A stretch of DNA of 63,692 nucleotides, the filler included, from Asterionella formosa (Eukaryota): assembly GCA_002256025.1 (NCBI GenBank). It is 5 parts of 5 records of this genome, joined end to end, with 100 filler letters (N's around TTAATTAATTAA, not from the genome) between each part and the next. Parts side by side here need not be neighbours in the genome. Positions count along the whole stretch, not along the records: positions 38,283 to 50,937 come from NKIB01007307.1; 4 more parts are not named here. One strand, 5' to 3'. The translations under genes and the position numbers were made by a program. Shown piece after piece: positions 1-52,571 of the stretch. Within the stretch, counting starts at the first letter, position 1, and every line of letters begins with the position of its first letter. The notes under the pieces were generated by a model that was not told where the DNA came from, ran no database searches, and saw only the letters and a list, made by a program, of their open reading frames with translations.

Positions 1-136
1 CCACTTTGATCGCCACCAGGCGCTTTGTTGACTTGGATTTGGCGAGAACAACAAGGGCAAATCCTCCTTTCCCTAAAATGCGGACAGGCTCGTATTCTTC
101 CTGCACTACAGGTGGCCAGTGCTCTGGGGCTTCCAT
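1..136 (-). CDS. Ser/Thr protein kinase, 5' end only (runs off window start)
   Basis: Manual translation from ATG at 136: MEAPEHWPPVVQEEYEPVRILGKGGFALVVLAKSKSTKRLVAIKV. Contains the Gly-rich loop (LGKGGFA) and the VAIK catalytic Lys motif of kinase subdomains I-II. Not in the ORF track. Confidence 0.85.
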   Translation of the reverse strand, partial: MEAPEHWPPVVQEEYEPVRILGKGGFALVVLAKSKSTKRLVAIKV

Positions 137-346
137 CTTTCCTAAGGTGGTGATGGTGTTGCCGAAGTGTCTGAGGGTGGACTGAGTCCTCGACACAAAT
201 TTGTGACACAAAAGACTTTTCACATCTTTCCATGTGGCTATAAACTATAAATACCGACGAAGGTCATAATACCGGTACAAATACAAATACCGGTATGTGA
301 TGTGAACAGAAATAGTGTCTATACTGGTATGTATGATATCGCAGAG

Positions 347-666
347 AAAGATTAGAACGTACCCCAGGCAAGCGAAGTCATTCAATAGTGAACAGGTGTC
401 AGGCACAGTATGGTCGAAATAATATATGTATGACAAATACATATACGGTACGGTATGTTTGTTGAACAACCTATATGGATTTATTCCGGACACCCAACAG
501 CTAATTGGTAGCCAGCCAGCAGTAAAACCAACAGGGTATGAAATTAAATAGCACACATTACTAGAATTAACATTTGGTAAACGTTTTTCTCTGTGTCCGG
601 CGATGATTGGAATCATCTTTATTAACGCTGCAGCTGAATATATCGTGTTTCCACTTTCCTTTACTA
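347..666 (+). repeat. ~300-bp diverged direct repeat, copy 1
   Basis: AAAGATTAGAACGTACCCC...AAGTCATTCAATAGTGAACAGG...GTGTTTCCACTTTCCTTTACTA recurs at 1694-1993 with substitutions and indels. Confidence 0.85.
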
Positions 667-1693
667 GTTTATCAGACCTTTCCGCTCCTTACTAATACCC
701 CCCTTGGACTCATTGTACTTTGACGCAGATTCCATCTGGTCAAAGCAGCTGTTGTTGCAAACCAAAGTCACCATGTTGAAGTGGCGCAGAGGTCCTGTTT
801 GCTTGTGCCCCCACCCACCCACACACCTTACTTGGTACCAAGTCTAAAACGACGCTCACTACGCCTTCAAGAGCTTACAAAGGGGCCCCTTCTTTTCTTT
901 TGCACTTGCTTCTGAGCCACCATGTCCCTAGCCCTTCTGGACGCCCAGGACCCTTGGCTCGACGACCCTCTTGACATTGGCGGCGCACCAGCCATGGTTG
1001 ATCTTGCATATGCTGACTTCATACTCACTACAATAGGATTTCCATGATATTCTAATTGTCTCCATGATTTCATCCTTTTAGGCATCTTCATCACGAAACA
1101 TATCATTTCCATAATAAACATTCTTACCCTGGAAGCATTTCTCACTCACTGCAACCACATGGCCTGCCGTGAACATAAACATGCCATCAGGTTGTCCATC
1201 ATCAATACCAGCCACCTTCCTGTGTTGCCACACCCCAGCATGTCTTCCCATCTATCAAGCATTGTCAACCCTTGGCTTGCCGATTCTCTTAAATAAGGGG
1301 CGCGGGGAATTGCTGGATCTAGCCTACAAAGATGCTCACAGCAACAACAAAAGTATCATATCATGGGGTTTTTCTCTATTATTTTACTCTCCAAACAACC
1401 AAGGATTTCCTTTGCCAGCCTGTACAAGAACCCTACACTATGGTGTGAGGGAGACTGTGATCTTGGATATCCTCCTTCTTTTCACCAGAACATTGCAGAT
1501 AGAGGAGATATGTCTCATGGCAGCAAAATAGCAGAAAGGGGAGCTCATTGCATCACAGAATCAGGCAAATGACTTGACAAGATACTTCTTCATTTTTTCC
1601 AAAATTTTCAGATTGATTCCACAGCAAACCTGGGCAATCTTGTGGCACCCACTATACATTGGTTAACAGTTTGAATGAAGGGGAGTAGCAGCA

Positions 1694-11400: not shown

Positions 11401-11768
11401 CACCGACAACGACCGAGACGTTGACATTTTCGACGTTTGTCATGTATTCGTCAGTCATTGTGATCTGCGTGGTAGCCCCAGTGTCCGCGAGCCAGCGCTC
11501 CGTTCCGTTGCTTGATGCGCAGTATTGGTCTTCGTACCACTCGTCTTCCATTGTAGGGACGAAACACACGCGTAGGAGTTCTTCAGTAGGAGTCTTGGTA
11601 GCTTTCTGTGTCACGTCCATGGTACCGGGGACATCGTCCGTCGCCTCCATACCAGTAATCTCCTCGCACATTGCCGGTTTCTTTTTTCTTCTCGCCGCGT
11701 GGTGCGCGTTTTGGTTCCGGGCAGTCTCTTGCAATACGGTACGGTACGTAGATGAGCTCACTTTAACA
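8042..11768 (-). mobile_element. Degenerate Ty1/Copia LTR retrotransposon with most of the 5' LTR and gag deleted
   Basis: Protease WLADTGATTQIT, integrase TAPHTPQQNGVVERK, RT (KGRIVVKGYVQIPGVDF, KAMYGSVQAARQW, TYVDDL) and RNase H (VDSAFA, SSTECEY, KHIDIRYH) in Copia order, split by frameshifts. LTR termini TGTTAAAGT...ACTTTAACA. CTCTGG flanks both ends. Confidence 0.92.
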
Positions 11769-11887
11769 CTCTGGGTGGTATGAAATAATTCTTGTCTGTA
11801 ATACATCGAGCTTTCTCATGCAACGACAAGTTGTTGTTGTAACAACTACCGTATTCGACCGTATCGTAGGCCTTGAACCTAGTACTG

Positions 11888-25425: not shown

Positions 25426-25525
25426 NNNNNNNNNNNNNNNNNNNNNNNNNNNNNNNNNNNNNNNNNNNNTTAATTAATTAANNNNNNNNNNNNNNNNNNN
25501 NNNNNNNNNNNNNNNNNNNNNNNNN
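25426..25525. other. Artificial contig linker
   Basis: N44-TTAATTAATTAA-N44. Confidence 0.97.
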
Positions 25526-28231
25526 TTCTGGGAGCCAGTCTGGTACCTCATGAGCAATAGAAAGTATCCGGCGAAGAGGTACCTTCGTGGACGCTTTGTG
25601 GGGATTGCCTGGACGACGGGAGACAACATGTGCTACCGCATCTGGACAGATGAAAAAGACCTCATCTCCAGAGAAATCCACCGTAGCGTGGTGCTCCCTC
25701 GGCATCCAGACGAGGAGTTTCCAAGAACCTTGGTCAAATACACAAGCGACTACTTCTTCCCAACTCCCAAATTGCCGAAGAACGGTCCAGAAGTTGTTAG
25801 TGCCAACCTCGAGGGGGGGAGGAAAAGGGTACGGGAACAGAGTAAACAACCTGACGAAGCTGACAAGAACAACGGTGGAACTCGCATAACACCGGGGCCG
25901 CGTGAGGGCAGAAGTAAACGACCGGGCAGTGGAGATCACACCACTTATACCCCAGGTACCGGGGCGCATAAAAACGTGGACATCGCGGAAGGAACCATAC
26001 CGGAGAGTACTGATGTGGGAAACCTCGGCCCGGAGGAAGCAGAAGTTCGCAAGCGATGGCTTGAAATGACAGAAGCGGAGGCAAACCGCGTCCTAGAACT
26101 ATATGCACCACCTACCGAGGGGGTAGACTATGCAAATATGAAAACTATTCTTAGTCATAAAACCACTACTAGGGATGGAGTGAAAACCATTACATTCCGA
26201 GTAAAGTACCGGTCGGGAGAAGTGATCCAGTGCGATCTCGATGACCTGAAAATAGATGCGCCATACTCACTCGCAGTCTATCTCAGGCAGAAAAAGATCA
26301 TGTCCCCTACCCTCAGGGAATGGTCTCAGAGAACGCTAGAGACCCTAGATACTTCATTGTATAGGACCAGGCTAATAGAACCAAATACTTCAATCCGGAG
26401 GCGACATGCACATGATGCTAGCGCCACAGTGGTGACCCTGACCCGATGCAACTCAGCCTTCTCCAGTCGGCGGCGGGTGAAAACCAACTCGAAGCCGGGC
26501 AGGAACAAAAGGAGACCGCATCACTCAAGTGGATGTGAAGTCAAATATGGGGTGAAAATCCCCAGGACGGTAGGAGAAGCTATTGACCTGGACAAGCTTA
26601 ATGGTGATGACCTGTGGCACCAGGCAATAAAGAAGGAAATTGGTGCTCTCATGGAGATGCAGACCTTCAACATTCTTGGACCGGACGAATCTAAATCCTT
26701 CAAACGGGATGGATTTCAGTACGCTCGACTGATGATGATATTTGACGTCAAGCAGGATTTACGGAGAAAGGCCCGACTGGTTCTAGGAGGTCACATGATC
26801 GATGCCTCAGGACACGATACATACGCGACCAACATGAAAGGAATCAGTGCCAGAATCCTCATGCTTATTGCAAGTGCAAACGAACTCAGGGTATTAACAG
26901 GGGATATAGGGAATGCGTATTTGTATGCCAGCACAAATGAAAAAATATTCTGCAGGCTTGGAGAAGAGTTCAGCATAGCAGGGCATGGGGCAACTGGAAG
27001 GATTGCAGTGCTTGAAAAGGCACTGTATGGCACCAAGAGCGCTGCAAACCGATGGCATGCACATCTAGCAGACACCCTACGATGTATGGGTTTTGCAACA
27101 AGCAGATATGATGCAGATATTTGGTACCAAGCACGTAATGATGGCTCTGGCTATGATTACATCGGGACACATACCGATGACTTGATGATAGTGGCAAAGA
27201 ACCCGGAAGGGTACTTTGAGGTGCTACAGGAGAAGTATACGATAAAGAAGATTGGCCCACCTACATTTCACCTGGGATGTGATTACATATGGGGACCAGA
27301 TGGCAAATGGAGCATAGGAACAGAAACTTACGTCAAGGATACCCTGGAGAGAGTGAAAACCATGCTAGGCCGGAAGGACCTTGGCAAGGATGACACACCT
27401 ATCTCACCAACATTCCATCCAGAGCTAGACAATTCACAACTACTAGATGTCGACCAACACAGGTTGTACCAACAACTGGTTGGAATAGCCCAGTGGTTGA
27501 TAACATGTGGTAGGCCTGATCTTTGCTATGCCATCTCGTCTTTAAGTCGATTCAGCTCTGCACCGCGGATAAAACATCTAAATGCACTGGAGCGAGTATT
27601 CAAGTATATCAACAAGAATAGAGCACTGGCGATTAAGATAAATCCGGAAAACTATGTCTTACCAAAGCATGACATCATGTACGAGAGCGCAGATTGGACT
27701 GAGCAGTACCCGGGAGCAATCGAAGAAATGGATGAGAAGTTCCCTACTCCACTAGGGAAGGAACTTAGCACAACCATATATTTTGATTCAGACCACGCCC
27801 ATGATCAGAAAACGAGACGTTCTATTACTGGGATAATTGCCTTCATAGGATCTACCCCAGTAACATGGGCATCGAAGCGTCAAGGGGCCATAGCAACTAG
27901 CACTTACACTGCAGAGCTATGTGCGGGTAGAACGGCTGCTGAGGAAGCCATCAGCATTAGATACATGCTGAGATCTTTAGGGGTGCCCGTGACGACACGA
28001 ACGCTATTATTGGGAGACAACCTAGGATCGCTCCAAAGTACCTCGAATCCTGAGTCTGAATGCCATAAGAAACATAGTATGGTTAATTACCACTGTGTGC
28101 GAGAGTGTTGTGCATCTGGAATCATCCAACTCGCGAAGGTAGACACTAAGATGAATCTTAGCGATGGCTTAACCAAAGCCATCAAGAAGTCTATCTACCT
28201 TGATCATAGAAGATGCCATTTTGCAGCGTGA
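25526..28231 (+). CDS. Copia (CoDi-type) Pol polyprotein, 3' part intact: integrase C-terminus, chromo-like segment, RT, RNase H
   Basis: Frame is open from the segment start (FWEPVWY). GRFVGIAW, KYGVKIPRTV.EA, FDVKQDLRRKARLVLGGH, GDIGNAYL, KALYG, THTDDL; RNase H YFDSDHA, TSTYTAE, LGDN. No stop in ~900 codons. Confidence 0.93.
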   Translation, partial: FWEPVWYLMSNRKYPAKRYLRGRFVGIAWTTGDNMCYRIWTDEKDLISREIHRSVVLPRHPDEEFPRTLVKYTSDYFFPTPKLPKNGPEVVSANLEGGRKRVREQSKQPDEADKNNGGTRITPGPREGRSKRPGSGDHTTYTPGTGAHKNVDIAEGTIPESTDVGNLGPEEAEVRKRWLEMTEAEANRVLELYAPPTEGVDYANMKTILSHKTTTRDGVKTITFRVKYRSGEVIQCDLDDLKIDAPYSLAVYLRQKKIMSPTLREWSQRTLETLDTSLYRTRLIEPNTSIRRRHAHDASATVVTLTRCNSAFSSRRRVKTNSKPGRNKRRPHHSSGCEVKYGVKIPRTVGEAIDLDKLNGDDLWHQAIKKEIGALMEMQTFNILGPDESKSFKRDGFQYARLMMIFDVKQDLRRKARLVLGGHMIDASGHDTYATNMKGISARILMLIASANELRVLTGDIGNAYLYASTNEKIFCRLGEEFSIAGHGATGRIAVLEKALYGTKSAANRWHAHLADTLRCMGFATSRYDADIWYQARNDGSGYDYIGTHTDDLMIVAKNPEGYFEVLQEKYTIKKIGPPTFHLGCDYIWGPDGKWSIGTETYVKDTLERVKTMLGRKDLGKDDTPISPTFHPELDNSQLLDVDQHRLYQQLVGIAQWLITCGRPDLCYAISSLSRFSSAPRIKHLNALERVFKYINKNRALAIKINPENYVLPKHDIMYESADWTEQYPGAIEEMDEKFPTPLGKELSTTIYFDSDHAHDQKTRRSITGIIAFIGSTPVTWASKRQGAIATSTYTAELCAGRTAAEEAISIRYMLRSLGVPVTTRTLLLGDNLGSLQSTSNPESECHKKHSMVNYHCVRECCASGIIQLAKVDTKMNLSDGLTKAIKKSIYLDHRRCHFAA

Positions 28232-38282: not shown

Positions 38283-39962
38283 GGCAAGGGGTCTACTTAA
38301 GGAAACCATTTTATATACTATCCAGATTCTAGTAATTTATATATAGAATTCACCTCGTTTTTGTTCGTCTCCTGAAAAGTGGACTCCGACAAATCACCTT
38401 TCACCATGCCAATCGTCGTCCATCATGACCGGTTTGAAGCGAAATCAGTTCCGCAATGACGCCAGTAGCGATTCTTTGCCTAACGGATGCGGTTGCTTGG
38501 CTGTTGGATTGCTTGTCTTTTCGAGGCATTCATGTACTTGCATCGTCCATTTTTCGTCGGACGAAAGATGATATCGATACATCTGATGTTGGTGGCAAGT
38601 TTTTGCTCCGGTCATGTATGTAATGATGCTTAACGGATATTCTATTCTACCGGTTACCGGCAGTCATCTAGTCTACATACGTACGTGGTACTAAAAACAA
38701 CCATGCATGGTTCAATCTTTACTTCAACGCTTACTTTGAACACGTAATAATATTATCTCTGTAGACTCGTTATCATTTTCATGAGACCTGAAATGTTGAA
38801 TTATATCGTTCACATATTCATTGATTTTACGTACTGTCTGCCCGATTTCGTCCTCACAAATATAGTTTGCACTCTATCTTGCCCGCCTTTGCTCTAGTCG
38901 GGCTTTCAATAAGCAACGTTCGTCTTTTTTTGATCCCATCGTCTGCTGCTTGTTATGCTAGTTGAAGCGGATCGTTAAGTACAACAGTGAAATACTGAAT
39001 GTGGATTGTAGGTTGTATTTATCGACTTTCCGATTTGATTGCTTCAGTGGTTTGTTTTGATCGCTTCCATCATTGTTTGTTGTTATGCACTGTCGTTACG
39101 CACTGTCGTTTTGTTTTGATTGTATATATCTACATAAGGACCAATGCATTTATCAATGACTACTCATTGAAGATGTGGAATTCTGCCGTTGTTGATCGTA
39201 TTTGTTTATTTGTATAGTCGTTGACAATGATGTCAATATTATTGCCGCCAAGCAATGCTTTTCTTGTACTAACGCGCTTTGCTACATTTCTACTATGAGT
39301 TCGTATCAGAAGCTACATGAATACTCAGCTAGAGAGAGTCAATAGTGCTGGAGCAGCATGGCGATCACGCTTTCTCAGAATGGAATGATCAGGGTTGCTT
39401 GTTTGGTGGCCGGAGGAATGATAACTGTGGCAGAAATACTGCTACTGGTGTCAGGCTACTACAGCGATGAGCATAGTTGCAGCAACCATACCATTATCGC
39501 TACATAACGATGCAGGGTTCAGCTTTTTTTCTTCTTCTTTCAGTCTTCGATTGTGTGGTGATGGAAAGTCAATGTTGCCTGTGTAAGTAATACAACAATG
39601 ATTCACAATGGATGCACATGACTCCATTGGAACTCTTATTTTATATTTCATTTCTAACCCAAAACAATTTTATCTATTTCTCATTTGATGCTACTCATTA
39701 CATCGCATTTCATACTTTGGTTGCTCCAAACATCTTGTTCAATTTTCATTGATGTTGCATGTTACAATCATTCTTCTTGTGTGTTTAACGCCTGTTGTAC
39801 CATCTCCATGCGTACTACCGTTACTATTCTGGTTGTAATGCTAAAATTCGGCAATTATTGCCGAAAAATTCGATGTGCCCCATGTTGCCATTAAAAAAAA
39901 ATTACTTAAGAAATTGCTTTGAAGTACCCGAATGGCAAGACGATAGCTGGAGCGGGAATTGC
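38283..39962 (+). mobile_element. Body and right end of the same non-autonomous inverted-repeat element
   Basis: Ends in CGAATGGCAAGACGATAGCTGGAGCGGGAATTGC, the reverse complement of the 37094 IR with 4 mismatches in 34 nt. No credible ORF. Confidence 0.75.
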
Positions 39963-40300
39963 GAATAAAGTTTCCTTAAGAATATATATATAGAGATTTA
40001 TTTTTATATTGTTAATTGTATTTCTAAATATATATAATATATATACCTGTATTATGTAAAAAGAGACAATAGTTAGGTCGCACTTATTTATTCCTCACTC
40101 CAGCACCAAAGCACACATCCGACCCACGTTTATCACTACAGCATGGTCCTACATGGATTACATTAGATAAACCCCTGGTACCACCCATTGTCATCATCAT
40201 CACGTGTTCAAAACATCAACACGGGCGTTGCCTTTGCAGAGCACGCTGCCTTGGAATTTTTTGCCGACGCTCTTGATGGTGCGTTAATTTTTCGGGCTCA

Positions 40301-40921
40301 ATGATAAACATGTTCTTTTCCATTTCGGCAAGGCAGCCGTTTGTGATAGCATCGCTCCAGAAGCAAGGTCTCTCGACTTTCAAGGCAGGACCTAAGAATA
40401 AAATCTCTCAAAGATTCTACGCTGGCTTTGTTCAGTCTTCGATTGCACATGCCCCTCAAATGAGACTCAGACAAGCATTTTCTCAAAGTTCCCAAAAGGT
40501 GGTGAAACAATTGGAGAAACAAACCGAACCAATTGTGCAGCAGCAAACCAGTATTCAGCGATTTCTTGGGCCCAAGGTTATGCCAGAGCGCGGCACGTTT
40601 CAGTGGTATCGCGAGATGGTCCTTTTGTGTACGGTCTTTGCGATAACTGGAACCTCGACAATGGTGTTGGTTCGACCTGCCATGTCGAATATATTGGGTT
40701 TGAAAGGCAGCCTCAAGGACGGACCTTGGTCGTATCGCATATGTTCGATTGTCATCATGACGCCTCTATACGCATGTATGCTTGTTGTTGTAGGCACAAC
40801 TTTTGGACGGCATGCCTATTTTCGCCATTTTGCAGTCAAAATGTTCAGCCGATTTGGAATTCCTCCGGAACTCATGGATGAATCGTTTCATCAGACAGCG
40901 AAGAATTTTCGAAAATGGTAG
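40301..40921 (+). CDS. Small two-TM membrane protein, DUF6787-like, with a possible organellar targeting N-terminus
   Basis: 206-aa uninterrupted ORF. C-terminal pattern VFAITGTSTM...IVIMTPLYACMLVVVGTTFGRHAYFRHFAVKMFSRFG resembles the DUF6787 pattern as recalled. N-terminus is rich in S/R/K/Q and almost free of acidic residues. Confidence 0.7.
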   Translation: MINMFFSISARQPFVIASLQKQGLSTFKAGPKNKISQRFYAGFVQSSIAHAPQMRLRQAFSQSSQKVVKQLEKQTEPIVQQQTSIQRFLGPKVMPERGTFQWYREMVLLCTVFAITGTSTMVLVRPAMSNILGLKGSLKDGPWSYRICSIVIMTPLYACMLVVVGTTFGRHAYFRHFAVKMFSRFGIPPELMDESFHQTAKNFRKW

Positions 40922-41680
40922 TGTTCACTTGCTTGTATTTACTCTTGAAAAAACAGAAAAGTGACCACTTGAATTCTCCTGAGCCATTCAGAAGTGAACG
41001 GTAGTCACAACATGAGGAAGAATGATCCTACAGCCCCAGAAGAGTCAACTTGCAAATAAATTGGCAACCAGAAGCTTGCTAGTTCTTGAGCAAATCACCT
41101 TATATTACCAGTAATTGATAGCGTCCTCAGTATATTAGAAATGTATACCTTTTCCTGATAGCATTATGTTTGAAAGTTCATAAAAATCCATCAATTTTGA
41201 CCTGTGGCACATTGCATAGCCTAAACATAACATTATTTAAATTGCTATACTTAACCTGAGTTTATACAGCAAAGGTACTTTTATCCACAAGCTCTACTAA
41301 TGTAGAAACTAAACAAGCGCAATGGATCTGCCATAGAGGGATAGTGAGACTATGTTCACTAACCCACGTATATGAGTCAGTTTGCTTTGATATCTGGTAG
41401 GACTATATAGGCTCTAGCTGTTGGCTTGTAGATGTTATTTGGCTTCAAAACGCTTCTGCCAAGATATATCAAGAAGGGACCAAAATATGAATACATTAAC
41501 GCCTAATGTATTTGTGAAATCGCAAAAAGGGTATGCATCAGCTTGCATGAAATGATCCATTAAAGCTGGATATTTCTGGATGAATATACTCTCCAAAGCA
41601 TGGAAGATGTACATGTGGGTTGGTTATTCAGTAAGAATAGTTTTATTGAGTTTATAGAACAAACTAAGGAGTGAATTGAA

Positions 41681-41945
41681 NNNNNNNNNNNNNNNNNNNN
41701 NNNNNNNNNNNNNNNNNNNNNNNNNNNNNNNNNNNNNNNNNNNNNNNNNNNNNNNNNNNNNNNNNNNNNNNNNNNNNNNNNNNNNNNNNNNNNNNNNNNN
41801 NNNNNNNNNNNNNNNNNNNNNNNNNNNNNNNNNNNNNNNNNNNNNNNNNNNNNNNNNNNNNNNNNNNNNNNNNNNNNNNNNNNNNNNNNNNNNNNNNNNN
41901 NNNNNNNNNNNNNNNNNNNNNNNNNNNNNNNNNNNNNNNNNNNNN
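41681..41945. other. Assembly gap (265 N)
   Basis: N run without the linker cassette. Confidence 0.95.
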
Positions 41946-41948
41946 ACT

Positions 41949-42570
41949 TGTAATGCAATAGTTGGTATATGCTACGTATCTGTAGCTCTCACACAGTAAA
42001 AGTTGCTAGAAAAATGTTTCTACACAATTTGTTTGTTTTACTTCGTTTGCTAATAGTTGCTTTTATAAAAGAGTGGGCTTAATGTAAATGTAAATTTGAA
42101 TGTATAATTTTGAAACTTCCAAGCTCATGGTGAGTTGTCACTTGTTGAAGTTCTTAGTTCAAGCTGTTGTGTTCGAACAGCACCCTCAAGAAATATATGA
42201 CGACACATTTCACGAAGAATACGTCTGTGTTGTTACCTTATATAGCAGAGGTGCTGATGCAGTGCTTGCTATCTCACGTGACTATGTAGGAGGCTACAAG
42301 TCGAACGCGATCTCTTACCTGACTCTCACAACCTTGTCGTGTAACAAATCTCGTTGTGTAAGAACAATTCAGCTATGAGCGTGTTGGGCTCAATAACCAG
42401 TTGGTAGATGCTACGTATCTGTAGCTCTCACACAGTAAAGGTTGCTAGAAAAATGTTTCTATACAATTTGTTTGCTTTACTTTGTTTGCTAATAATTGTT
42501 TTTATAAAAGAGTGAGCTTAATGTAAATGTAAATTTGAATGTATAATTTTGAAACTTCTAAGCTCATTCA
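41949..42570 (+). repeat. Two ~170-bp direct repeats (41960-42128, 42399-42567) around a ~270-bp non-coding core; TRIM-like
   Basis: AGTTGGTA.ATGCTACGTATCTGTAGCTCTCACACAG...GAAACTTC.AAGCTCAT repeated at period 439. Confidence 0.75.
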
Positions 42571-43615
42571 TGTTTCAAAATAGAGGTGATCTTCGGAGGC
42601 AAGGTTCATGTGTGTTCCCAACTTGAACTGAGAATAAAATACATCCTCTTCCTGAATACCCATTTTTTTTAATCTTGGCCTGTCTCAACTTAGGCCAGAT
42701 GCTGTTTGATCGAAGACTGCTTACAGAATGATCCTTTTAATCATAACTAGATCATATCTAGTTCGCTTCTTTAATGTTCCTTGATTTTGCGGACATATCT
42801 GTAATTATCTTGTCAATCATTTATTGATTTGGTCTCTAGCTCGGTCTGATTGTCTTCTAGAGTCCATTTAAAAAGGTTAGAGAGAACTTCTCCTGAAAGT
42901 TCCTCTCTAATCTGTGGCATTTTACACGCGATATTTAACCATGTGCCCTTGAATCAATCATCTTGTTGATTGTGGTACATGTTCCTAATCAGGTCACTAG
43001 AGACGAAAATATATTGACACTCTCATAACCTGATCTGGAATCAGGAATCTCTATATGTTTCAACTGCAATGATAAAGATATTTACAATTCAATCAGACTA
43101 TTTGATTTGTTTTGTGGGTCGTTATCAAGCTGAATGAAGCTCAATACCAGTACAACCAACAGAAGTGGGCGGCTCCCAATCCACATACGGTACCTGTAAA
43201 AATCATCAGCGTACGGTACTGGTAACCATCAGCATATACCCTGGTATACTATTTATCTAGAAGCCAGCAATGAGCCATCCATGGAGATCCAATCCAATTC
43301 ATCCAGCACTCCGTGTACCTTCACAAAAAGCCAAATAAGTGTACCGGTATCATCCATCGTCGACAAGGGATGGTCCATCGTGGGTTCTGCCATAGTATGC
43401 ATGATTGTGTGAACACACAATCGCTCCGTTCCCTCCTTCTATTCGAACTCTGGCTGCTACTTCTTGTTCTGCAACCTCCAAACCTCTGCACCTCTGGAGG
43501 CTTGAGGAATCACGAGGTCGGCTGTCATCCTGTGGGGACAGGACCATTGGCAAAACTGCTGCTGAAGCGACCAATTTCGTGTTGATCAGTTCACTCCTGC
43601 ATTCCCGTCTGTGCC

Positions 43616-45820
43616 ATGGTCGACCCGAGCGACGAGAAGGGCAATTGGATCGATATTACGGAAATGATAAAAGAATGTGCCGCCAGCCTTTCGTTTCAAG
43701 AACCCTACATATGCAACGAGCATTCATTCAGTTTGCATGACTCAATGGCAGCACTCGAATTGATGGATCAGAAGATGGATTGCTGCGAGATTCCTGCTAA
43801 TCTTGTTGGTTCTGGGAGTGCAGACACCACGGTCCCGCCACGTCCACTTCCCAATGGATTGGACGATTGTGTTTCTAATCTGCCGTGGGACCATATCACG
43901 CTTCATGAAACGGCTGTGATTGCTGTTGAAGCTCTAACGCGATTGGAAGCTCTCTTGTCGGGCGCTTCCATGCCGGAAAGTACATACACTTGCATGTATG
44001 CGCATAATGCAGTCATGTCGGACATGCGAGAGCGATTAGATCCGAAATGGACGATTTCGGAACAGCTGAGCCAACTCATGACTCCGACGAAAAACAAACC
44101 AAAGGATCCAACTATACCTCAGCTTGTCCTGTACGCGACAATATTAGCTCTTGTCGATATGAGTGATGTGGTGAGGTCGATTGTGGTGAATGCTGATATT
44201 TATGAAGAGGAAGATTTTTCCATCATTATGTTTGGCCTGCAAGTCTTCGGAGAGGCACTGGACAATGAAGCCAATGTCGTCATAACAAAAAGTCTGTCCC
44301 AGCTGGAAGGAAATGATTCGATAGAAGCCAAGATTCTTCGCCATATTCTACAGTTCCAATTTAAGTTCCTACAAGTATGTACGACTATGTCAAAATTGAC
44401 AGCAGAGTCGGTACGACCATCATGCGAGCATGTCCAATTTTTTGTGAAAGCTGGAGTCGACGAACTAATGGCACTCAAGAAAATACAACCGTCATTGGCA
44501 GTCGACGATGATGAGACTAAACTCCTCCTGAAACGTTGTTTTGACCCCTTTGTGTATCGGCAACTCGTTGGGAGCTCGCCTACGAGAAAGATTGTATATA
44601 AAAAGCCAGATGAGTCCATCGATGTTTTGTCAAAAGTCTTCGGCGAAATCGCCGATTCAGTGTGTCCTATGCTTCTGGATGTTTCGACGCTAGGTCAAGT
44701 ACGCCATTTAGTACAAAAAACATCTGTCTCCTCCATCAACATTCTCAGTCGATCATTGATTGTTTTGAACCTTTATTTTGATGACCGATTGCTTGGGCAA
44801 TACGATTTGGGAAAATTGATCGGACAAGATATACAGCAAATATCCGCAATGCCTGACGATATCTTGGAAAGTAAGCATGGCGTCGCCTTTCGCAACAGAC
44901 TTGCCAAGCCCGTTTATGACACTTTGAAATTGCTATTATTAAATCGAAATCGGCAACGAACTTATCTGGAAGTCATCATGTTCCCAGAATGGATTACTCT
45001 GCAAAGGGAAGCTCATGCTTTAGATATGATCAACCGACAAGATCTCAACGTTAGGGACAAATTTTCTCCTTTCTTTCTACAATACGTGTTGTGCAAAACA
45101 GTGGAACTTATGGATCATTTTGTTGCCCTCGGTATTGAATTAGAGCTATTTCAAGGGCAGCACGATCTTGGCGTCGCGTATTGGTATCGTGACTTTCTGC
45201 TGTCGACACTTTTGACTAATATGTCACAAATGAGACAAGAAAGGGAGACATCTATTCGGTTGCAAGAATCGATTGGGAATGGCAAGAATGGTTATTCATC
45301 CAAGCGAATAAAAGAAGATAAAGAAGCGGAATTCGCATTCATGATGATCGGATTTAAAAGAGTCATGTGTCGAGGATTGGTCCGCTTTATCGCTGCTTTG
45401 AATCAAGCAGGGGTAGTCAAGAACAACATCTATGAATTTACATCACATGAACTAAGATTCCGAAAGCGATTTGACCACTTTGCTGGCATAGCGCAACCGC
45501 CACCATTGACCTACGATGACTTCAGGCAGGGATCCGATTTCTCTAATGTAATTTCAAAAGACTTACTTGCGGCTACGGCAGATTGCTTTAAACAGTGCAA
45601 GGTTATGCTCGATGGTCTTTTTGCAGTCCTAGAAAGCCTCAGTCCAGATGACATCGACGACCGAAAGGAAGAACTGCGGAAATTGACTAAAGTCAGCGTG
45701 GGCAACGCCGTTTTTCTCATGCGGCTCAAACAGATGATTGAAAAGGGAGGAAAGCCTGGCGAAAAGGACGTCGTTTTTGATTTTGGGGTTGATCAATTTT
45801 GCACCATTAGAATAGAGTAA
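43616..45820 (+). CDS. NAA35: N-alpha-acetyltransferase 35, NatC auxiliary subunit (Mak10)
   Basis: 734-aa intron-free ORF with the Mak10 signature WIDIT...FSLHDSMAALELMDQKMD, L.G.S..ESTYTCMY and IYEEEDF; C-terminal LGIELELF, YWY and RF..RF.HF....PPPL.Y. Confidence 0.9.
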   Translation: MVDPSDEKGNWIDITEMIKECAASLSFQEPYICNEHSFSLHDSMAALELMDQKMDCCEIPANLVGSGSADTTVPPRPLPNGLDDCVSNLPWDHITLHETAVIAVEALTRLEALLSGASMPESTYTCMYAHNAVMSDMRERLDPKWTISEQLSQLMTPTKNKPKDPTIPQLVLYATILALVDMSDVVRSIVVNADIYEEEDFSIIMFGLQVFGEALDNEANVVITKSLSQLEGNDSIEAKILRHILQFQFKFLQVCTTMSKLTAESVRPSCEHVQFFVKAGVDELMALKKIQPSLAVDDDETKLLLKRCFDPFVYRQLVGSSPTRKIVYKKPDESIDVLSKVFGEIADSVCPMLLDVSTLGQVRHLVQKTSVSSINILSRSLIVLNLYFDDRLLGQYDLGKLIGQDIQQISAMPDDILESKHGVAFRNRLAKPVYDTLKLLLLNRNRQRTYLEVIMFPEWITLQREAHALDMINRQDLNVRDKFSPFFLQYVLCKTVELMDHFVALGIELELFQGQHDLGVAYWYRDFLLSTLLTNMSQMRQERETSIRLQESIGNGKNGYSSKRIKEDKEAEFAFMMIGFKRVMCRGLVRFIAALNQAGVVKNNIYEFTSHELRFRKRFDHFAGIAQPPPLTYDDFRQGSDFSNVISKDLLAATADCFKQCKVMLDGLFAVLESLSPDDIDDRKEELRKLTKVSVGNAVFLMRLKQMIEKGGKPGEKDVVFDFGVDQFCTIRIE

Positions 45821-45878
45821 ATCAGTCAATGTGGCATAGATCGATCCTTTCAAGAGAAATGTTTTTCGGGCTAGGCAG

Positions 45879-48800
45879 CTACTTTCCTTTGACTATAGTC
45901 GAGAAGTCGTATTCTCTTCTTACCTCCTCGAACGACAGCAGCAAAAGTTCCTCGAAAACCGGCCCAATGCATTGCCACATACCATCGACGCCAACGCAAA
46001 GTACTAATGCGCCGATGATTGACTTGAAAGAGAATGCCAGATCGGCCGTGATAAATTCTGGTAGCTTTCCTTTTTGATGACTGTACAATCGTCCTCCTCC
46101 AATGCCCGTGTACTTCGGTTCCGGGACTCTGTCTGAATTCAGCGTCCATCGCCTTTCGAATTCCTTGTTACCTCCATCGAGAATCCAGCCACCTAATGTG
46201 TCCCACTTCTGCCGTCCAATACTGTCAGAAAGCGCCATCTCTGTTTTGAATCTCGATATTGCGGGAGCCTTTTTGTCAAACAAGAAGACATCGAATCCAT
46301 TTTTTATGAATACATAAACCACGCAATCATCCGTCGAGGCAACAGCTCTAAGAACGTGAAGTCCGCCTTCTTGAACATCAGGATTACGTTCGAATAGTTG
46401 GTGCGTTATACACAGCTGCAATGCAGAGGCTCCAAGGAGCGCCAGAGTGTCCCTTGTCAGTCCTGCTCGAAATAATCCTTTTTCAAATGTGCTTTCAATA
46501 GACAACGCATCGTCAGATGCTTCGGTTTCCCTCGATAACGAGGGCCTCGTTCGCTCTAATGGAGGAATACTTGTTTCCTCGGAGTTCATTGTCGACCCAT
46601 TACTGAGTGACATGATTGAGGACCCTGAATCACTGTTGTCTGAAAGGCTTTCGTCGAATATCGAACATAAAAGCAAGATTTTCGACGCTTGAACGCTGAG
46701 AATCTCATGAAGGGATAGCTGACCAGAAAGTTCCACCAGTTTCTCCACTAACTTTGTGTATCCTTGAGTAAGTTCTAATATCATTTCGTCATTCGTGTAC
46801 AAGGCAGTTCCTACAGAAACAAGCTGTTTCTTCCAGGATTTATCAAGGTCAAATGGATATCCTGCTTTCATACAACATCCCATTGCTCTGAACCATGGCC
46901 ATCCCGACTCTTCAGTTTTGCACCTCTCTTTTGGAAGAGGCAACCGAAACTCATTCAAGAGTGCAATCGTCAAATTAGAATTATTCTCGTCTAATTTGTG
47001 CAGTCCATCCAGGAAAGCGATACCAAGTAGACTTTCAGCGACATCAGCCAAAGTTCGGTCTCGTAATTCCCGAATTTCTTCTATTTGCGATGACGATCCC
47101 ATTAAAAGCGAAAACTCTAATGTCGTTTTGACAGTTGTGTTGCTGATTGTTGCCGAAGACCGAAACGCACTTTTCCATTTGTCCGTATCCTGTCGCAGCA
47201 TTCGATTCACTCCAGTTCGTAGCGAAGCGTCGTATAGTGCAGAATTCCTCGCAGCAACAGAAAGTAGATTTGATAGCTCATCGAAGTCCCATTTCAGTTC
47301 TGCATTTCGAGCCATCAAGTTAAGCGCAAGGAAGTACCCAAGTACAGCATCACCTAAGAATTCAAGACGTTGGTATCTTTCCTTTGGGCTCAAAGTACAA
47401 GCCTCTTCCACAAGTCTGGGCAACGACCTTGGACTTCCACGCAGGGTGACCACCGGTAGGCGTGGCCGCTTGCTATGGGGGTAACACGTTGCCTTGCCCA
47501 GCTCATTCAACTGAAAAGCCCATTCTAGACTTTCCATCTTAAACTCAAGAGCACGCATGAACGATGACTCGTGTTTAAGAAGGAACAAGACGTCCTTCGG
47601 CATGGGATACACCATTACGGCCTCAGGGAATACGTTTTCGTAGTATTCCTTATTTGTATATTTAAAAGAATTGAAAGGGTCATGACTGGAAACCTTGGAA
47701 ACCTTGTAGAGCTGAAGCAAAGGCATCCTAACATGACGTATGAGATTCCCATCTCGTTTCAAGCTCCTCCCGACAAACGTTACAGTATTTGGGTCATAGT
47801 TCCACTTTTGTCTACAGAGATTTCTGTAATCATCATCGCAAGGCTTCGTGCGGCATCTCGATCTGCCAGTAATGCGGAATGATCGAAAGGGAACCGGTCG
47901 AGTTACAAAAAGCCTGCCTGTGGGAAACTTAAAGCGATTCTTCAAGAATCGGTTGGAAAGCTCATAATCGGTATAGTGGCAGGTTGGAGGCAAGAGATAG
48001 TAGCACAGATACGATACTATCGAAGAGACGAGCAAGATAAAATATGCATAAAGCTCCCAAGCAAAGGTACCTTTCTCGCTTCCTAGGAATGAATTCAGCA
48101 GCAAGTACCATCCAGCGAAAATACCTTTCATATCATTTGCTTTCCCGGCTTGTATATATTTATATCCAAGCACCACAAGCTCATGAAAATGTTCCCGTAA
48201 AAGCGTATTGCGTACACTTATGCCACGATTTGCCATACCGATTGTAAGAAACGACCAACTTAATAGTAACAACAAGACACTGAAAAAAAGCAAATCAACC
48301 TTCCCCAGCAAAGGAAGATTCCAATTTGCGTCAATAGCTTCGATGTAGGGCTTCAGTTGTTGAGTGCTTATATCACGAAGCGAGATCCAATCCACCTCCA
48401 ATGAGTCATTTTCAATCAAGGGAGCAAACATGTACGTTCGACCATCGAGAATTTGTTCGCTTGTGTCTAATTCATTGACTGACCGCAGGCCATACCTCTT
48501 CCAGTCCTGAATCTCTCGATTGAATCGAATCAAGTCCTGTAAACGATCTTTTGTTAATGGTGACGGCTGGTTTCCCCCACTCAATTGGATTCCCTTGGAC
48601 AGTCGAACCAAGGCGTTTGCTTGTTGCCCTGGTCCTTTCTGCTTCATGGCAAACTGCGCTTCGATATATCCATTCGCCAATACCGGAATTTCGGCACAGA
48701 ATATCACACCAAGAGGGGTGGGCTTCAAGACTCCACTTCTTGCTGTCACGAAATTTTGACCTTCACAATCGAAAAAATCCAAGCGATACAAATAAAGAAC

Positions 48801-50045
48801 GCTGCCACTTTCGATGTCTTGAGTGGTTTTTGAAACAATAGGTAGCGGAGATGTTGTCCAACTAGATAAGTAGGAAACATAGTTCGCTGTAGATGGATTG
48901 CAAGTCAGTATACCTTCTTTCTCGGTCTGCACCTGTCGCGGTGTCGATAGTTCAGCAGTGTAACTGGTATTACCAGTCTGTCTTCCAACTTCTTCCACTA
49001 AGAGCGCCACTGCATTTCCTAACGCATCTTTTTTGGTAGAAGAAGGATACCCAAAGACCTTGAGCTCTATCGGTTCATGGATAGTAATGATGCAACAGAG
49101 GCGCGTCGGTTCCCCTATCCGAAACGACCGATTCCCTACCTTCTCTTTGTATAAGATGGAAAGACTGTCATGCCTTACCCCAATTTTATGGCATTCATGT
49201 ACCCAGCTAGGAAATTTTCTTTCACTTGCAGGAAGAAAAGCTGATGTCGGCGCTGATTCACTCTCGACCTTTTTGGTGTCGCTTTTGTCAATTGAATCGC
49301 CTCTGATATCCTCAGGACTGATGGGCAGGAACAGTTTCTGGTCCTTCATATCAGCACCCAACATGCTGTGAGCTTCGAGAACAGCCACGGCAACGGCCCG
49401 CTTTGCGAATCTCTTTCCGCTGAACACCACCTGATGCTTCTGGACAATATACTCCCCAAAACACTTCTTCGTTAGTTCAACAAGCTTGTTTTCTTTCCTC
49501 TCTTGGAACATAGGTATCGGAAGGCTGGAGAAGTAAACGTTTTTAGTGATTGGACAATGAAATGAAAAATTAAAGAAGGAACGGCCAGCAATATTTTGAG
49601 GTGGCTCTTCCTTGAAGAAACCTTTTGGGTTCACTTTGAGCTTCTGCTGATAAAATTCGTTCAGATAAACCATTGGGTCTCTGCTGACAAATCTTTCGAG
49701 CACATCGATAGCAATGTTTGTCAATACATTTAGATCAATTTCGTCTTGACCCTCGTCAAACAAATCTTCCAGGTCCGACATAGAAGCTTCGAGAGTGTCA
49801 TCCGGAATAGGAACTTCGGTTTGATCTGAAATTTCAGACAACTGCTTCTGCACTTGAACGCTGCTAAAATGAATTGTAACTTTGGACATCACGGAACCCG
49901 ATCGAATGCCGTCCATGTTAACGTCGAACGAAGGCAAAAAGGACGTGATTTTCAATGGAACTGATGCGGAGCAGCCAATTGATTTGTTTACAAAAAGCTT
50001 ATGATAAGACACTTGCTGTGTTGCGACTGTGGACTTGCGGCCCAT
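45879..50045 (-). CDS. Dicer-like RNase III protein (dsRBD-like N-terminus, platform/PAZ-like region, RNase IIIa, degenerate RNase IIIb; no helicase)
   Basis: 1388-aa ORF. RNase III signature ERYQRLEFLGDAVL plus TLADVAESLLG; second copy RDTLALLGASALQL plus DLAFSFKSIIGAL. dsRBD-like DPMVYLNEFYQQK...KRFAKRAVAVAVL and STKKDALGNAV. Platform-like LYLYRL...YMFAPL...VDW. Confidence 0.85.
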   Translation of the reverse strand: MGRKSTVATQQVSYHKLFVNKSIGCSASVPLKITSFLPSFDVNMDGIRSGSVMSKVTIHFSSVQVQKQLSEISDQTEVPIPDDTLEASMSDLEDLFDEGQDEIDLNVLTNIAIDVLERFVSRDPMVYLNEFYQQKLKVNPKGFFKEEPPQNIAGRSFFNFSFHCPITKNVYFSSLPIPMFQERKENKLVELTKKCFGEYIVQKHQVVFSGKRFAKRAVAVAVLEAHSMLGADMKDQKLFLPISPEDIRGDSIDKSDTKKVESESAPTSAFLPASERKFPSWVHECHKIGVRHDSLSILYKEKVGNRSFRIGEPTRLCCIITIHEPIELKVFGYPSSTKKDALGNAVALLVEEVGRQTGNTSYTAELSTPRQVQTEKEGILTCNPSTANYVSYLSSWTTSPLPIVSKTTQDIESGSVLYLYRLDFFDCEGQNFVTARSGVLKPTPLGVIFCAEIPVLANGYIEAQFAMKQKGPGQQANALVRLSKGIQLSGGNQPSPLTKDRLQDLIRFNREIQDWKRYGLRSVNELDTSEQILDGRTYMFAPLIENDSLEVDWISLRDISTQQLKPYIEAIDANWNLPLLGKVDLLFFSVLLLLLSWSFLTIGMANRGISVRNTLLREHFHELVVLGYKYIQAGKANDMKGIFAGWYLLLNSFLGSEKGTFAWELYAYFILLVSSIVSYLCYYLLPPTCHYTDYELSNRFLKNRFKFPTGRLFVTRPVPFRSFRITGRSRCRTKPCDDDYRNLCRQKWNYDPNTVTFVGRSLKRDGNLIRHVRMPLLQLYKVSKVSSHDPFNSFKYTNKEYYENVFPEAVMVYPMPKDVLFLLKHESSFMRALEFKMESLEWAFQLNELGKATCYPHSKRPRLPVVTLRGSPRSLPRLVEEACTLSPKERYQRLEFLGDAVLGYFLALNLMARNAELKWDFDELSNLLSVAARNSALYDASLRTGVNRMLRQDTDKWKSAFRSSATISNTTVKTTLEFSLLMGSSSQIEEIRELRDRTLADVAESLLGIAFLDGLHKLDENNSNLTIALLNEFRLPLPKERCKTEESGWPWFRAMGCCMKAGYPFDLDKSWKKQLVSVGTALYTNDEMILELTQGYTKLVEKLVELSGQLSLHEILSVQASKILLLCSIFDESLSDNSDSGSSIMSLSNGSTMNSEETSIPPLERTRPSLSRETEASDDALSIESTFEKGLFRAGLTRDTLALLGASALQLCITHQLFERNPDVQEGGLHVLRAVASTDDCVVYVFIKNGFDVFLFDKKAPAISRFKTEMALSDSIGRQKWDTLGGWILDGGNKEFERRWTLNSDRVPEPKYTGIGGGRLYSHQKGKLPEFITADLAFSFKSIIGALVLCVGVDGMWQCIGPVFEELLLLSFEEVRREYDFSTIVKGK

Positions 50046-50937
50046 ATACTGCGGGGGGAAACATACAAACAGGCAGAGATGATGTCAGATGGTAAAACAC
50101 ACAAGCATGACCGAAAAATGATTTTTTTATCATGCACAATCATACAAATCATGCTCCATAAATACATAGATAGCTGTACAAACGTACACACCTATGTATG
50201 TCCACATCATAAACCAGACGCCAGAGGACGTTGCGGGATATGAATAAGACCAAAACTAATACGGGTAGACATACGAGAAAAACACAATAGCTAATTTGAT
50301 ATTCCGGTATAAAGTTCTCATTACCACAACGAGTTTTGGAGGTAAATATTCATACCGGTAAACCTCAATTCCGGTATTTTACCTGATGGTTCCAGTACTC
50401 TACGTATTTATATATACCGGTATATACTATGACATTTATTATCTTTAAGTTGTGTGCAACTAACGGCAGTTGTCAAGGGGCATAAGAAGAACAACTGCCA
50501 ATCATTTCTTGTTCATATTTTTATTTTTAAAAACATTCAATAAGCTTCTTTCTTCAAGAAATAGCCAACATTTGACCAGTAAAAGTTTCAAAAAGTTGAT
50601 TTAGGCAGAGAAGAAATCAGTATCATCCATGTATTCCCTTTTCTGTATTTAGTAACAATAAGGCCTTGGTATCAAAAACTTTCACAAGCAACGAATAACC
50701 TTAGGGATGACAAATGTATCCATTAGCATCATCATCACACCATTTATCAACCACCTTGGTATCACAAAGTCTCACAAGTGCATATAGCCCACAATCTGGG
50801 TGGATGGCATACGTATTCATTAACAGCATCAAAACACTTTTGACTTGTTGCTTGACTTGGTCAATGCATCCAACTGGTTCAAGCTCCTTCGTTTTGGAGC
50901 AGGATACTTTTCGGTCGCGACATCTTGTCTCTTGATC

Positions 50938-51037
50938 NNNNNNNNNNNNNNNNNNNNNNNNNNNNNNNNNNNNNNNNNNNNTTAATTAATTAANNNNNNN
51001 NNNNNNNNNNNNNNNNNNNNNNNNNNNNNNNNNNNNN
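50938..51037. other. Artificial contig linker
   Basis: N44-TTAATTAATTAA-N44. Confidence 0.97.
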
Positions 51038-52571
51038 TGGTTGAAATAACATGGAATCATGCATATTCAGTGGCCATACTGATCTGCAATGGTGCTTTGG
51101 TGCCAGTATAGAAAGATTCCGAGAACCCAATTTCTTCAGGTATATGGAATTCTTGTGGAAGATATCCTGTATCGGTGCATAACAATTCCAATCCTTTTCT
51201 GCATCCGGGGATGATGCAGTACTTATGGGCAAGGTGAAATACTTGATCATAATGTTCATCCAAACTTGCATCTTTTCCTGGATCACGGACTTGACATAAT
51301 CCATCATTTATAGCAAAAAGATAATGCACAAAATGATTGTCTTCCTCCTCATCTGATCTTTTGCAATACACAATTAGAACATAGTTACTTTTGTAATGAA
51401 GTGGATGACAATCACCTTTGTATATATATGGATTGATATTACCCTTTTCTGGGTTCTCATCCAGATCAAATATAGTATAACCTTTACATCACTTGGATGA
51501 AGTTCATGAATTATATAATGGATCATAGAGGTAATTGTTTCAAGGTCCCAATATGCAAGATCTTTAAAATTTGAAGATGATTTTTTGATGATACTACCTT
51601 TGACTCCATAAAGTACAGAGGCGTAATTGCATATTTCTTGTGGGGTACGTGTGTACAAATCTTTCCACAATTTTAGTTTTCCATGAGTTTTCGGCAAATT
51701 CAAGGAAAATGCCGTTTGCTTTGGCATATTAACTCTACACATTTCACATGCCGACTCTTCACAAAAGTAGCTAGCTGCCTTCTAGATTGTTTTTAATGAT
51801 TTTACAAAGAAATTCTTTTGCTTCCATGTATGATTTAAAAAAGATTCAATTTTGTGTTTCTGACTTTGTTCCCTATTCAGAGCATCAACTGCCTTAGCCA
51901 GCATCACATGCATCTCTGTCTGCATTGATCTTCTTGAATTCGAGTCTTGATCTAGCTCAGACTTTTTCTTGAATATCTTTTCTTTTAGAAATGCAATAGT
52001 TTCTCTGCTTTCATGATGTTCATCTTGATGTTCTGGACGGATAGTGAGATATGTTTCTTGGTTTTGCAACTTTTCAACCATTTCTACTTCTGAAGTGTTG
52101 TCTGCCATATTTCTGCCGATATTTTCATTCATCGCATGATTTTGTTCATCAAATGAATGAGAATCACTGAGTTCTTCTTCATTATCAGCGATTTTGGGAG
52201 AATGAGGAGGAAAATACGACAGTGGATGGTGGAACTGTGACTCTGTACGAATAGAGTCTTCATCCACGAAGACCAACTGTTTGGGTTTCCTCTTCGAAAG
52301 CAGGCCAATCTTTCCTTCTTTTCAATCTCAGCCACTATTGTATCGGCATACTTGCTTCATTATTATTATTTTCTGGAGTATTATGAATCTGTTTAAATTC
52401 ATTTGATCTTTGAGTGTATTCAAAGGAATCTTCGATTGATTTCATAACTTTCTTCATCTTCTTTTCCGAAAACATAATGTCGTGTAGTGTAAACAATGGA
52501 AGTAAGTCTCGTTTCTTGTTTGACTGATCCTTTCCAAGAAATCCGTTAAAAGCCGTTCGGAAAGTTGTCAA
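51038..52571 (-). pseudogene. Frameshifted, multicopy, probably transposon-borne ORF of unknown function
   Basis: Chain of same-strand ORFs (52335-52571, 51782-52276, 51374-51742, 51057-51371) that read as one interrupted protein. Its 5' part recurs at 15662-16187. Confidence 0.5.

Follow-up and report, generated by a model that had tools for sequence, protein, structure and literature searches.

A Dicer-like protein of Asterionella formosa with a candidate membrane hairpin in its PAZ-like region

The window analysed here, a stretch of DNA of 63,692 nt (filler included) from Asterionella formosa (GenBank assembly GCA_002256025.1) in which five parts of five records are joined end to end, contains a Dicer-like gene on the minus strand of the part that comes from NKIB01007307.1 (positions 38,283 to 50,937). 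Its product is probably (a rough probability of 0.65) a non-canonical Dicer-like enzyme that carries its own two-pass hairpin anchor for an endomembrane; its double-stranded RNA (dsRNA)-binding domains (dsRBDs), its PAZ pocket and its RNase III pair would all face the cytoplasm or nucleoplasm. The analysis is computational throughout; it combines the reading frame, RNA contigs from public runs, hydropathy, conservation across a family of 18 proteins and structure models. The features of the gene are listed in the order of the protein, with positions along the window and residue numbers counted from the first methionine:

45879..50045, minus strand: Dicer-like coding sequence, intronless; a single open frame, 1388 aa from the first Met (MGRKS...) plus stop
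49371..49676, minus strand: first dsRBD-fold domain, about aa 137-238 (AlphaFold2 model and Foldseek; approximate boundaries, taken from the secondary structure of the model)
48975..49208, minus strand: second dsRBD-fold domain, about aa 293-370 (same model and search; approximate boundaries)
47484..48647, minus strand: candidate platform-PAZ-connector cassette, aa 480-867, with the hairpin inserted (AlphaFold2 and VIA-align)
48231..48293, minus strand: hydrophobic helix 1, aa 598-618, LLFFSVLLLLLSWSFLTIGMA, predicted first membrane pass (hydropathy, AlphaFold2 helix, aligned segment in 18/18 relatives)
48054..48230, minus strand: variable loop, aa 619-677 (59 aa), holding the weaker segment IFAGWYLLLNSFL at 48084-48122
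47991..48053, minus strand: hydrophobic helix 2, aa 678-698, LYAYFILLVSSIVSYLCYYLL, predicted second membrane pass (hydropathy, AlphaFold2 helix)
47985..47990, minus strand: Pro-Pro helix break P699-P700 at the exit of helix 2, invariant in a nine-sequence alignment (A1)
47004..47372, minus strand: RNase III domain 1, aa 905-1027, catalytic motifs intact (Pfam PF00636, E 1e-16)
45945..46472, minus strand: RNase III-like domain 2, about aa 1205-1380, catalytic carboxylates lost (alignment; approximate boundaries)

Reading frame and RNA cover of the insert

The open frame on the minus strand runs uninterrupted from stop to stop over 45879-50084, corresponding to 1401 codons. A second methionine (MDGIRSG, position 49916 of the window) lies 43 residues downstream of the first and is the start in the closer orthologs; the database protein P0002 (1388 aa, 100% identical) begins at the same first methionine as the protein of the window (P0001). 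Translation of 47985-48293 in this frame gives LLFFSVLLLLLSWSFLTIGMA...IFAGWYLLLNSFL...LYAYFILLVSSIVSYLCYYLLPP, residues 598-700, directly C-terminal to the stretch ...RTYMFAPL...VDW..., in agreement with the sequence-only reading of this DNA, which had placed an in-frame hydrophobic insert after a platform-like motif; the opposite strand holds no open reading frame of at least 80 aa over the same 47985-48293 interval. P0002 differs from the protein of the window at 3 residues, two of which lie in the loop (MKGIF to MKSIF and GSEKG to GSKKG), and a contig from a polyA-selected library (X5) carries C>T at 48125, changing Gly to Ser in the loop; the loop thus accepts replacements even between near-identical alleles. 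A comparison in the Protein Atlas placed the whole protein nearest to clusters of fungal and plant Dicer/RNase III proteins (0.90-0.92), which restates the family, and gave an uninformative best score of 0.75 for the insert alone.

A search of public sequencing runs listed 12 runs, 10 of which contain the stretch wholly or partly; nine of them are recorded as RNA, and they belong to seven studies. Four runs (X1, X5, X7, X8) were compared in detail, including 300 nt upstream of the gene, on the level of contigs, not reads. In a lake-water metatranscriptome (X1), one contig of 6760 nt extends over 45600-50095 with three mismatches and no gaps; in X5, whose polyA-selected library is labelled as an algae metagenome, a contig of 4211 nt covers 45600-48348 without gaps and crosses the entire insert, and a second contig runs from 48360 to 49986. 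The freshwater metatranscriptomes X7 and X8 cover the gene in pieces only, with holes within the insert that are uninformative. None of the four runs showed a joint or a loose end. Cover by contigs extends to 50095 in X1 and to 49986 in X5; past 50108 there is a single 151-nt contig of X1 at a depth of 2, and the other three runs lack any cover in the upstream 300 nt. Since cover stops upstream of the gene, the contigs appear to represent transcript rather than DNA carry-over, a weak sign in itself. The locus is represented in RNA libraries, and the dominant polyadenylated form retains the insert: across 47980-48300, contigs of two studies, one of them polyA-selected, are colinear with the genome. 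The insert is translated coding sequence and not an intron.

The hydrophobic hairpin, its conservation and its probable topology

Hydropathy was computed in 19-residue windows, as the Kyte-Doolittle mean (KD19) and as a sum on the Hessa biological scale. Helix 1 reaches a KD19 of 2.27 and a Hessa sum of -2.19 over residues 598-616, and has no charged residue across its 21 positions in the protein of the window; helix 2 reaches 1.89 and +0.33 over residues 680-698. No other window of the protein is as hydrophobic; the best outside these two segments has a Hessa sum of 4.75. The two strong segments of the sequence-only reading were thereby recovered; the weaker third one that it had listed, IFAGWYLLLNSFL, was rejected as a membrane pass on its KD19 of 0.69 and Hessa sum of 8.89, and it is missing in short-loop relatives. 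Of the 19,227 windows of 19 residues that lie outside the hairpin in the 18 family proteins, only six have a Hessa sum of 2.75 or less; those among them that are per-protein minima all fall in one buried core helix of the second RNase III domain (RNase IIIb). As judged from these scales, the hydrophobic pattern of the hairpin exceeds chance.

The pattern extends across the family. A word-index search returned eight homologs at 100, 58, 57, 56, 56, 34, 35, and 28% identity, all of which keep the frame and the hydrophobic pattern; in the nine-sequence alignment A1, every row has hydrophobic stretches at both positions, separated by intervening sequence of varying length, and the invariant residues include W588 and L604, W676 just ahead of helix 2, P699-P700 directly behind it, and the NRF motif C-terminal to them (N711-R712-F713, aa 711-713). 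An exhaustive HMMER search of 1.84 billion representatives, with aa 480-900 as the query, found only 12 proteins at E<=0.001, seven of them at E<=1e-10, with most matches in two stretches split around the insert. The family alignment comprises 18 sequences with 21-53% identity to the query; all 18 have two non-overlapping hydrophobic 19-residue segments between the RTYMFxPL...DW and NRF motifs. The weaker segment of the pair has a KD19 of at least 1.45 in 18/18 and of at least 1.6 in 15/18; the lowest Hessa sum of the entire protein falls in the hairpin in 17/18, and both hairpin segments beat every outside window in 15/18, the exceptions being P0011, P0017 and P0018. Two of the 18 proteins, P0018 and P0019, are truncated, and in P0019 the two segments abut.

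Between the segments, the loop ranges from 0 to 72 aa among the 18 relatives (mean 35, by the boundaries of the 19-residue windows), and the sequences of the segments themselves diverge freely between relatives. P0003 lacks 28 aligned loop residues that are present in its close relative P0005 (A1 columns about 905-935), through either a deletion or a difference between gene models. Scans of metagenome contigs with P0010 and with the close-clade alignment A4 yielded no orthologous DNA locus. Hydrophobicity that is kept without sequence, a connector of free length, an interfacial tryptophan (W676) and a Pro-Pro stop together suggest membrane helices; this conservation pattern is the one expected for such helices, and unlike that of a buried interface or an intron.

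Charges around the hairpin were counted as sums over the 18 proteins. The 15 residues before helix 1 contain 35 Lys/Arg and 28 Asp/Glu, the 15 residues after helix 2 contain 50 and 27, and the loops, with 629 residues, contain 55 and 73; since the flanks are net positive and the loops net negative, this family sum would fit the positive-inside rule for an N-in/C-in topology with the loop on the far side. The whole-protein hydropathy scan revealed no N-terminal hydrophobic segment and no signal-peptide-like start; given what is generally known of membrane biogenesis, the 597 N-terminal residues would therefore stay in the cytosol or nucleus. The presence of two segments and not three, the missing N-terminal signal and the family charge bias fit a topology in which the dsRBDs and the RNase III domains lie on the same side. 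The two-pass anchor of the sequence-only reading is supported: the insert stays in the RNA contigs, both strong segments score as membrane-like by hydropathy, and 18/18 family members carry it, so that none of the outcomes which that reading had named as refuting it was observed.

Several points weigh against a spanning hairpin or limit the argument for it. The loop of the window protein itself has seven Lys/Arg and five Asp/Glu, and the loops of its own clade are long (49-71 aa), with as many Lys/Arg as the flanks; the charge argument is thus weak for this protein, whose own-clade loop is longer and more charged. Co-translational insertion rarely begins with a membrane helix that has about 600 folded residues ahead of it. 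Three of the 18 proteins have a marginal second segment (Hessa sums of 4.27 in P0011, 3.78 in P0017 and 3.95 in P0019), and the Hessa values given here are plain sums that ignore position terms. On the RNA side, contigs lose rare variants, and a minor spliced isoform could exist.

The alternative that survives best is that the two helices do not span a membrane, but form a hydrophobic hairpin that is buried by self-association, by a partner or by packing on the PAZ domain, or a monotopic hairpin of the lipid-droplet or reticulon type; this is unlikely on balance, yet it deserves serious weight. In the AlphaFold2 (AF2) model of aa 480-900, both hydrophobic segments are long helices in blocks with a predicted local distance difference test (pLDDT) score of 73-88 (82-88 for the block of helix 2); helices occupy model positions 119-166 (helix 1 with an extension), 173-188 (a helix in the loop) and 195-218 (helix 2). 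The stretching of helix 1 to 48 residues (H119-166) and the third helix in the loop would suit a non-spanning hairpin, and very short loops of 0-14 aa in some relatives would suit a monotopic one. Human Dicer presumably also has a Dicer-specific helical insertion in its PAZ domain. When the insert alone was compared with known folds, it matched only generic antiparallel helix pairs at Z 6-7, and these came both from soluble coiled-coil hairpins (ESCRT-I, SMC hinge arms) and from membrane proteins (ATG9A, CD9). Against such a non-spanning hairpin, helix 1 is free of charge over its 21 positions, and its Hessa sum lies far past that of any other helix in the 18 proteins; sequence is normally conserved at a buried interface, whereas hydrophobicity alone is kept here, and the charge bias of flanks and loops fits a spanning topology.

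That the insert is a tolerated expansion of a PAZ surface loop, without function, confined to the lineage and hydrophobic by accident, is very improbable: the loop is highly variable in length and sequence, and two of the three allelic residue differences lie within it, as such an expansion would lead one to expect, but the two hydrophobic 19-residue segments persist in 18/18 proteins although the flanks drop to 21-28% identity, every sequence of A1 has W676 and P699-P700, and an exposed neutral hydrophobic surface of 40 residues would be strongly disfavoured by selection in a soluble protein. An in-frame or retained intron that is absent from the functional mRNA, as hinted by the acceptor-like motif TTTTTTTCAG that the sequence-only reading had pointed out, is hardly credible and largely refuted: the insert has the lowest guanine-cytosine (GC) content of the gene (0.393, against 0.40-0.49 elsewhere), GT and AG are present in frame (a GT..AG interval of 42 nt over IFAGWYLLLNSFL is one example) and P0003 lacks part of the loop, but the RNA contigs described above are colinear and without joints, frame and hydrophobic pattern are retained in 18/18 proteins down to 21% identity, the T-richness reflects Phe and Leu codons, so that a low GC content fits coding sequence and intron equally and composition does not discriminate, and TTTTTTTCAG encodes L F F S of helix 1 (ctt ttt ttc agt), at the upstream end, with the insert coming after this "acceptor" and not before it.

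Flanking domains and the RNase III pair

Pfam detected RNase III alone in this protein (PF00636, E 1e-16), in two stretches that form a tandem pair; at E<=1, neither PAZ nor dsrm was detected, and there was no helicase match, so that the N-terminal helicase and DUF283 of canonical metazoan and plant Dicers are not found by this search. The absence of a helicase is compatible with a Dicer-like status, since minimal Dicers of the Giardia type also lack one. The domains upstream of the RNase III pair were identified on the level of fold. The AF2 model of aa 110-480 (pLDDT 74, predicted template modelling score, pTM, 0.41) had its best Foldseek matches among tandem-dsRBD proteins: TARBP2 (7zpk_C, E 9.6e-5), Loqs-PB (8dfv_K, E 3.8e-4) and NF90 (5dv7_C, E 8.1e-4). 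As modelled, two dsRBD folds precede the cassette.

The AF2 model of aa 480-900, computed with the 18-sequence alignment as input, has a pLDDT of 72.1 and a pTM of 0.63. Foldseek returned no match at E<=0.001 for this cassette model; the top entry of its list is the human Dicer cassette (4ngf_D, E 2.7e-3), and nearly all the others are Dicer and Argonaute PAZ structures. VIA-align gave a Z-score of 10.7 with Giardia Dicer (2ffl_D; 224 aligned residues, root-mean-square deviation (rmsd) 10.6 A) and of 9.6 with the human Dicer cassette (4nh5_A; 202 aligned residues, rmsd 5.2 A, model 1..369 against chain 766..1053). A search of 48,161 chains that was independent of Foldseek placed Giardia Dicer first at Z 10.6, and all 11 chains with a Z of at least 8 were Dicer or Argonaute/Piwi; since best Z-scores of 7-8 are typical for models without a true match, according to the note of the tool itself, this evidence is moderate but coherent. 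On the basis of the VIA-align scores and the uniform list of matches, the cassette is assigned, with moderate confidence and at the fold level only, as a genuine Dicer platform-PAZ-connector upstream of the RNase III pair. Since the flanks thus form a real Dicer cassette, the hairpin is best regarded as an addition to a known soluble fold.

The position of the hairpin can be narrowed down with isolated PAZ domains, which align to model positions 97/98..350, corresponding to aa 576-829 (Hiwi1, 3o3i_X: Z 8.6, rmsd 2.9 A, 95 aligned residues). With only the end residues of each alignment to go by, the hairpin seems to interrupt the PAZ-like stretch some 20 residues after its start, and not to be a platform-PAZ linker. 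To this extent, the placement between platform and PAZ in the sequence-only reading needs correction.

The two RNase III domains differ in their catalytic motifs. In domain 1, YQRLEFLGDAVLG (EFLGD) and DVAESLLG align to RNase IIIb of Drosophila Dcr-1, and the E..D and D..E motifs are retained in all 16 relatives that cover the domain. Domain 2 aligns to the RNase III of Mycobacterium tuberculosis (2a11) and to RNase IIIa of human Dicer; here, TRDTLALLGASAL stands against TNERLEFLGDAVL of 2a11, so that both E and D are replaced by A (LALLGA instead of LEFLGD), and FSFKSIIGAL is found where DxxE(A)xxGA is expected, which turns D into F and E into K. In 16/16 relatives, domain 2 is devoid of the signature Glu and Asp, and Lys replaces the glutamate of DxxE in 15/15. 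Carboxylates equivalent to E40, D44, D107 and E110 of Aquifex aeolicus RNase III are accordingly present in domain 1 only; residues 37, 40, 44, 64, 107, and 110 of the A. aeolicus enzyme are marked in the legend of Figure S5 of De Riso et al. (2009; PMC2724275). By alignment, the family combines one RNase III domain with intact motifs and one that is invariantly degenerate. The replacement residues RDTL and FSxK are themselves conserved, which suggests that domain 2 retains a non-catalytic role. By analogy with RNase III pseudo-dimers, a monomer should then cut one strand only, and cutting of both strands would need two molecules or a partner. With a degenerate second domain, the dsRNA processing that the sequence-only reading had suggested would not be canonical two-strand dicing by a monomer; the antiviral role that it had raised is speculative.

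Combined with the hairpin, these domains suggest the following arrangement of the anchored enzyme. From the N-terminus, the order would be two dsRBD folds, the platform, a PAZ domain with the hairpin near its start, the connector, the active RNase III domain and the degenerate one. The 597 N-terminal residues would remain cytosolic or nucleoplasmic, helix 1 would insert with its N-terminus inside, the loop would face the lumen, and helix 2 would return the chain. An endomembrane, for which the endoplasmic reticulum (ER) or the nuclear envelope is a guess, would thus have all RNA-handling domains (dsRBDs, PAZ pocket and RNase III pair) on its cytoplasmic side. The enzyme would meet dsRNA at the membrane surface, with its end-binding PAZ module kept beside the bilayer. 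Possible sources of membrane-bound dsRNA include the replication compartments of RNA viruses and transposon transcripts at the nuclear periphery. As a tentative and rather doubtful extension, the Dicer of the whole lineage might be an integral membrane enzyme, in which a two-pass, PAZ-derived anchor holds the pocket for dsRNA ends at the ER or nuclear envelope and couples small-RNA biogenesis to membrane-bound dsRNA, and in which two anchored molecules must cooperate to cut both strands.

Genomic neighbourhood and comparison with known systems

The Dicer-like gene has a convergent neighbour at 43586-45820 (plus strand), a Naa35/Mak10 subunit of NatC (PF25789, E 4.7e-61), whose frame ends 58 nt from the Dicer stop codon; the long contig of X1 spans both genes, and their 3' ends probably overlap or abut. 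On the other side, about 600 nt upstream of the Dicer-like gene, a run of N at about 50700-51300 (X in two frames) is read as an assembly gap. Elsewhere, the window contains pieces of copia-type long terminal repeat (LTR) retrotransposons at 8441-11815 (minus strand), 16440-17564 (plus strand) and 25478-28228 (plus strand), with RVT_2, integrase core, gag, zinc knuckle and Pol beta-barrel matches; they could possibly be substrates of the silencing pathway. An ARM/LRR protein is also encoded in the window. Together, these other genes indicate no more than nuclear DNA of a eukaryote.

The best structural match of aa 480-867 is the minimal Dicer of Giardia intestinalis (2ffl, Z 10.7), a soluble enzyme in which both RNase III domains are active; in contrast to Giardia Dicer, the protein described here has a hydrophobic two-helix insert in its PAZ-like region, a degenerate second RNase III domain, and N-terminal dsRBDs, which the Giardia enzyme lacks. 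The human Dicer cassette (4ngb-4nh6) and plant and insect Dicers (DCL1/3/4, Dcr-1, Dcr-2) share the same fold at Z 9.1-9.7 (194-216 aligned residues, rmsd 4.9-6.9 A), yet at 14-17% identity and without the approximately 100 extra residues of the hydrophobic hairpin. Membrane-tethered RNA cleavage as such has precedents in the integral-membrane ribonucleases RNase Y of bacteria and Ire1 of eukaryotes, in which the enzyme's own helix tethers cleavage to the membrane surface; these have unrelated folds and a single-pass anchor, N-terminal or mid-protein, whereas the candidate anchor here is a hairpin inside the RNA-end-binding domain. To our knowledge, all characterised Dicers are soluble, and those that work at membranes are held there by a partner. 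If the present reading is true, a Dicer with its own conserved transmembrane hairpin would represent a new way to place RNA silencing in the cell, and would raise the question of which dsRNA is met at the membrane; for this family, the invariantly inactive second RNase III site, as aligned, is at odds with the standard view that a single monomer makes both cuts.

Full-text literature searches did not find a Dicer with its own membrane segment; the Phaeodactylum Dicer knockout of Grypioti et al. (2024, New Phytol.; cited in PMC11910669) was outside their scope and may bear on domain structure or localisation. Two candidate papers (PMC10080066 and PMC13547706) were set aside, as "transmembrane" concerns other proteins there. 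Among diatoms, the Dicer-like protein Pt2_48138 of Phaeodactylum is described as having a dsRBD and two RNase III domains, and Tp3_11638 as having two RNase III domains; the same source states that key catalytic residues are conserved, and its available part mentions no membrane segment (De Riso et al., 2009; PMC2724275). According to this published description, Pt2_48138 shares a dsRBD upstream of two RNase III domains and the lack of a helicase with the protein of the window, a likeness that makes its membership in the family a lead only. A parallel concerns localisation: according to PMC3526294, human Dicer is placed at the ER membrane via CLIMP-63, likewise a Dicer at an endomembrane, but one held by a partner, whereas the predicted anchor of the Asterionella protein would lie within the Dicer chain itself.

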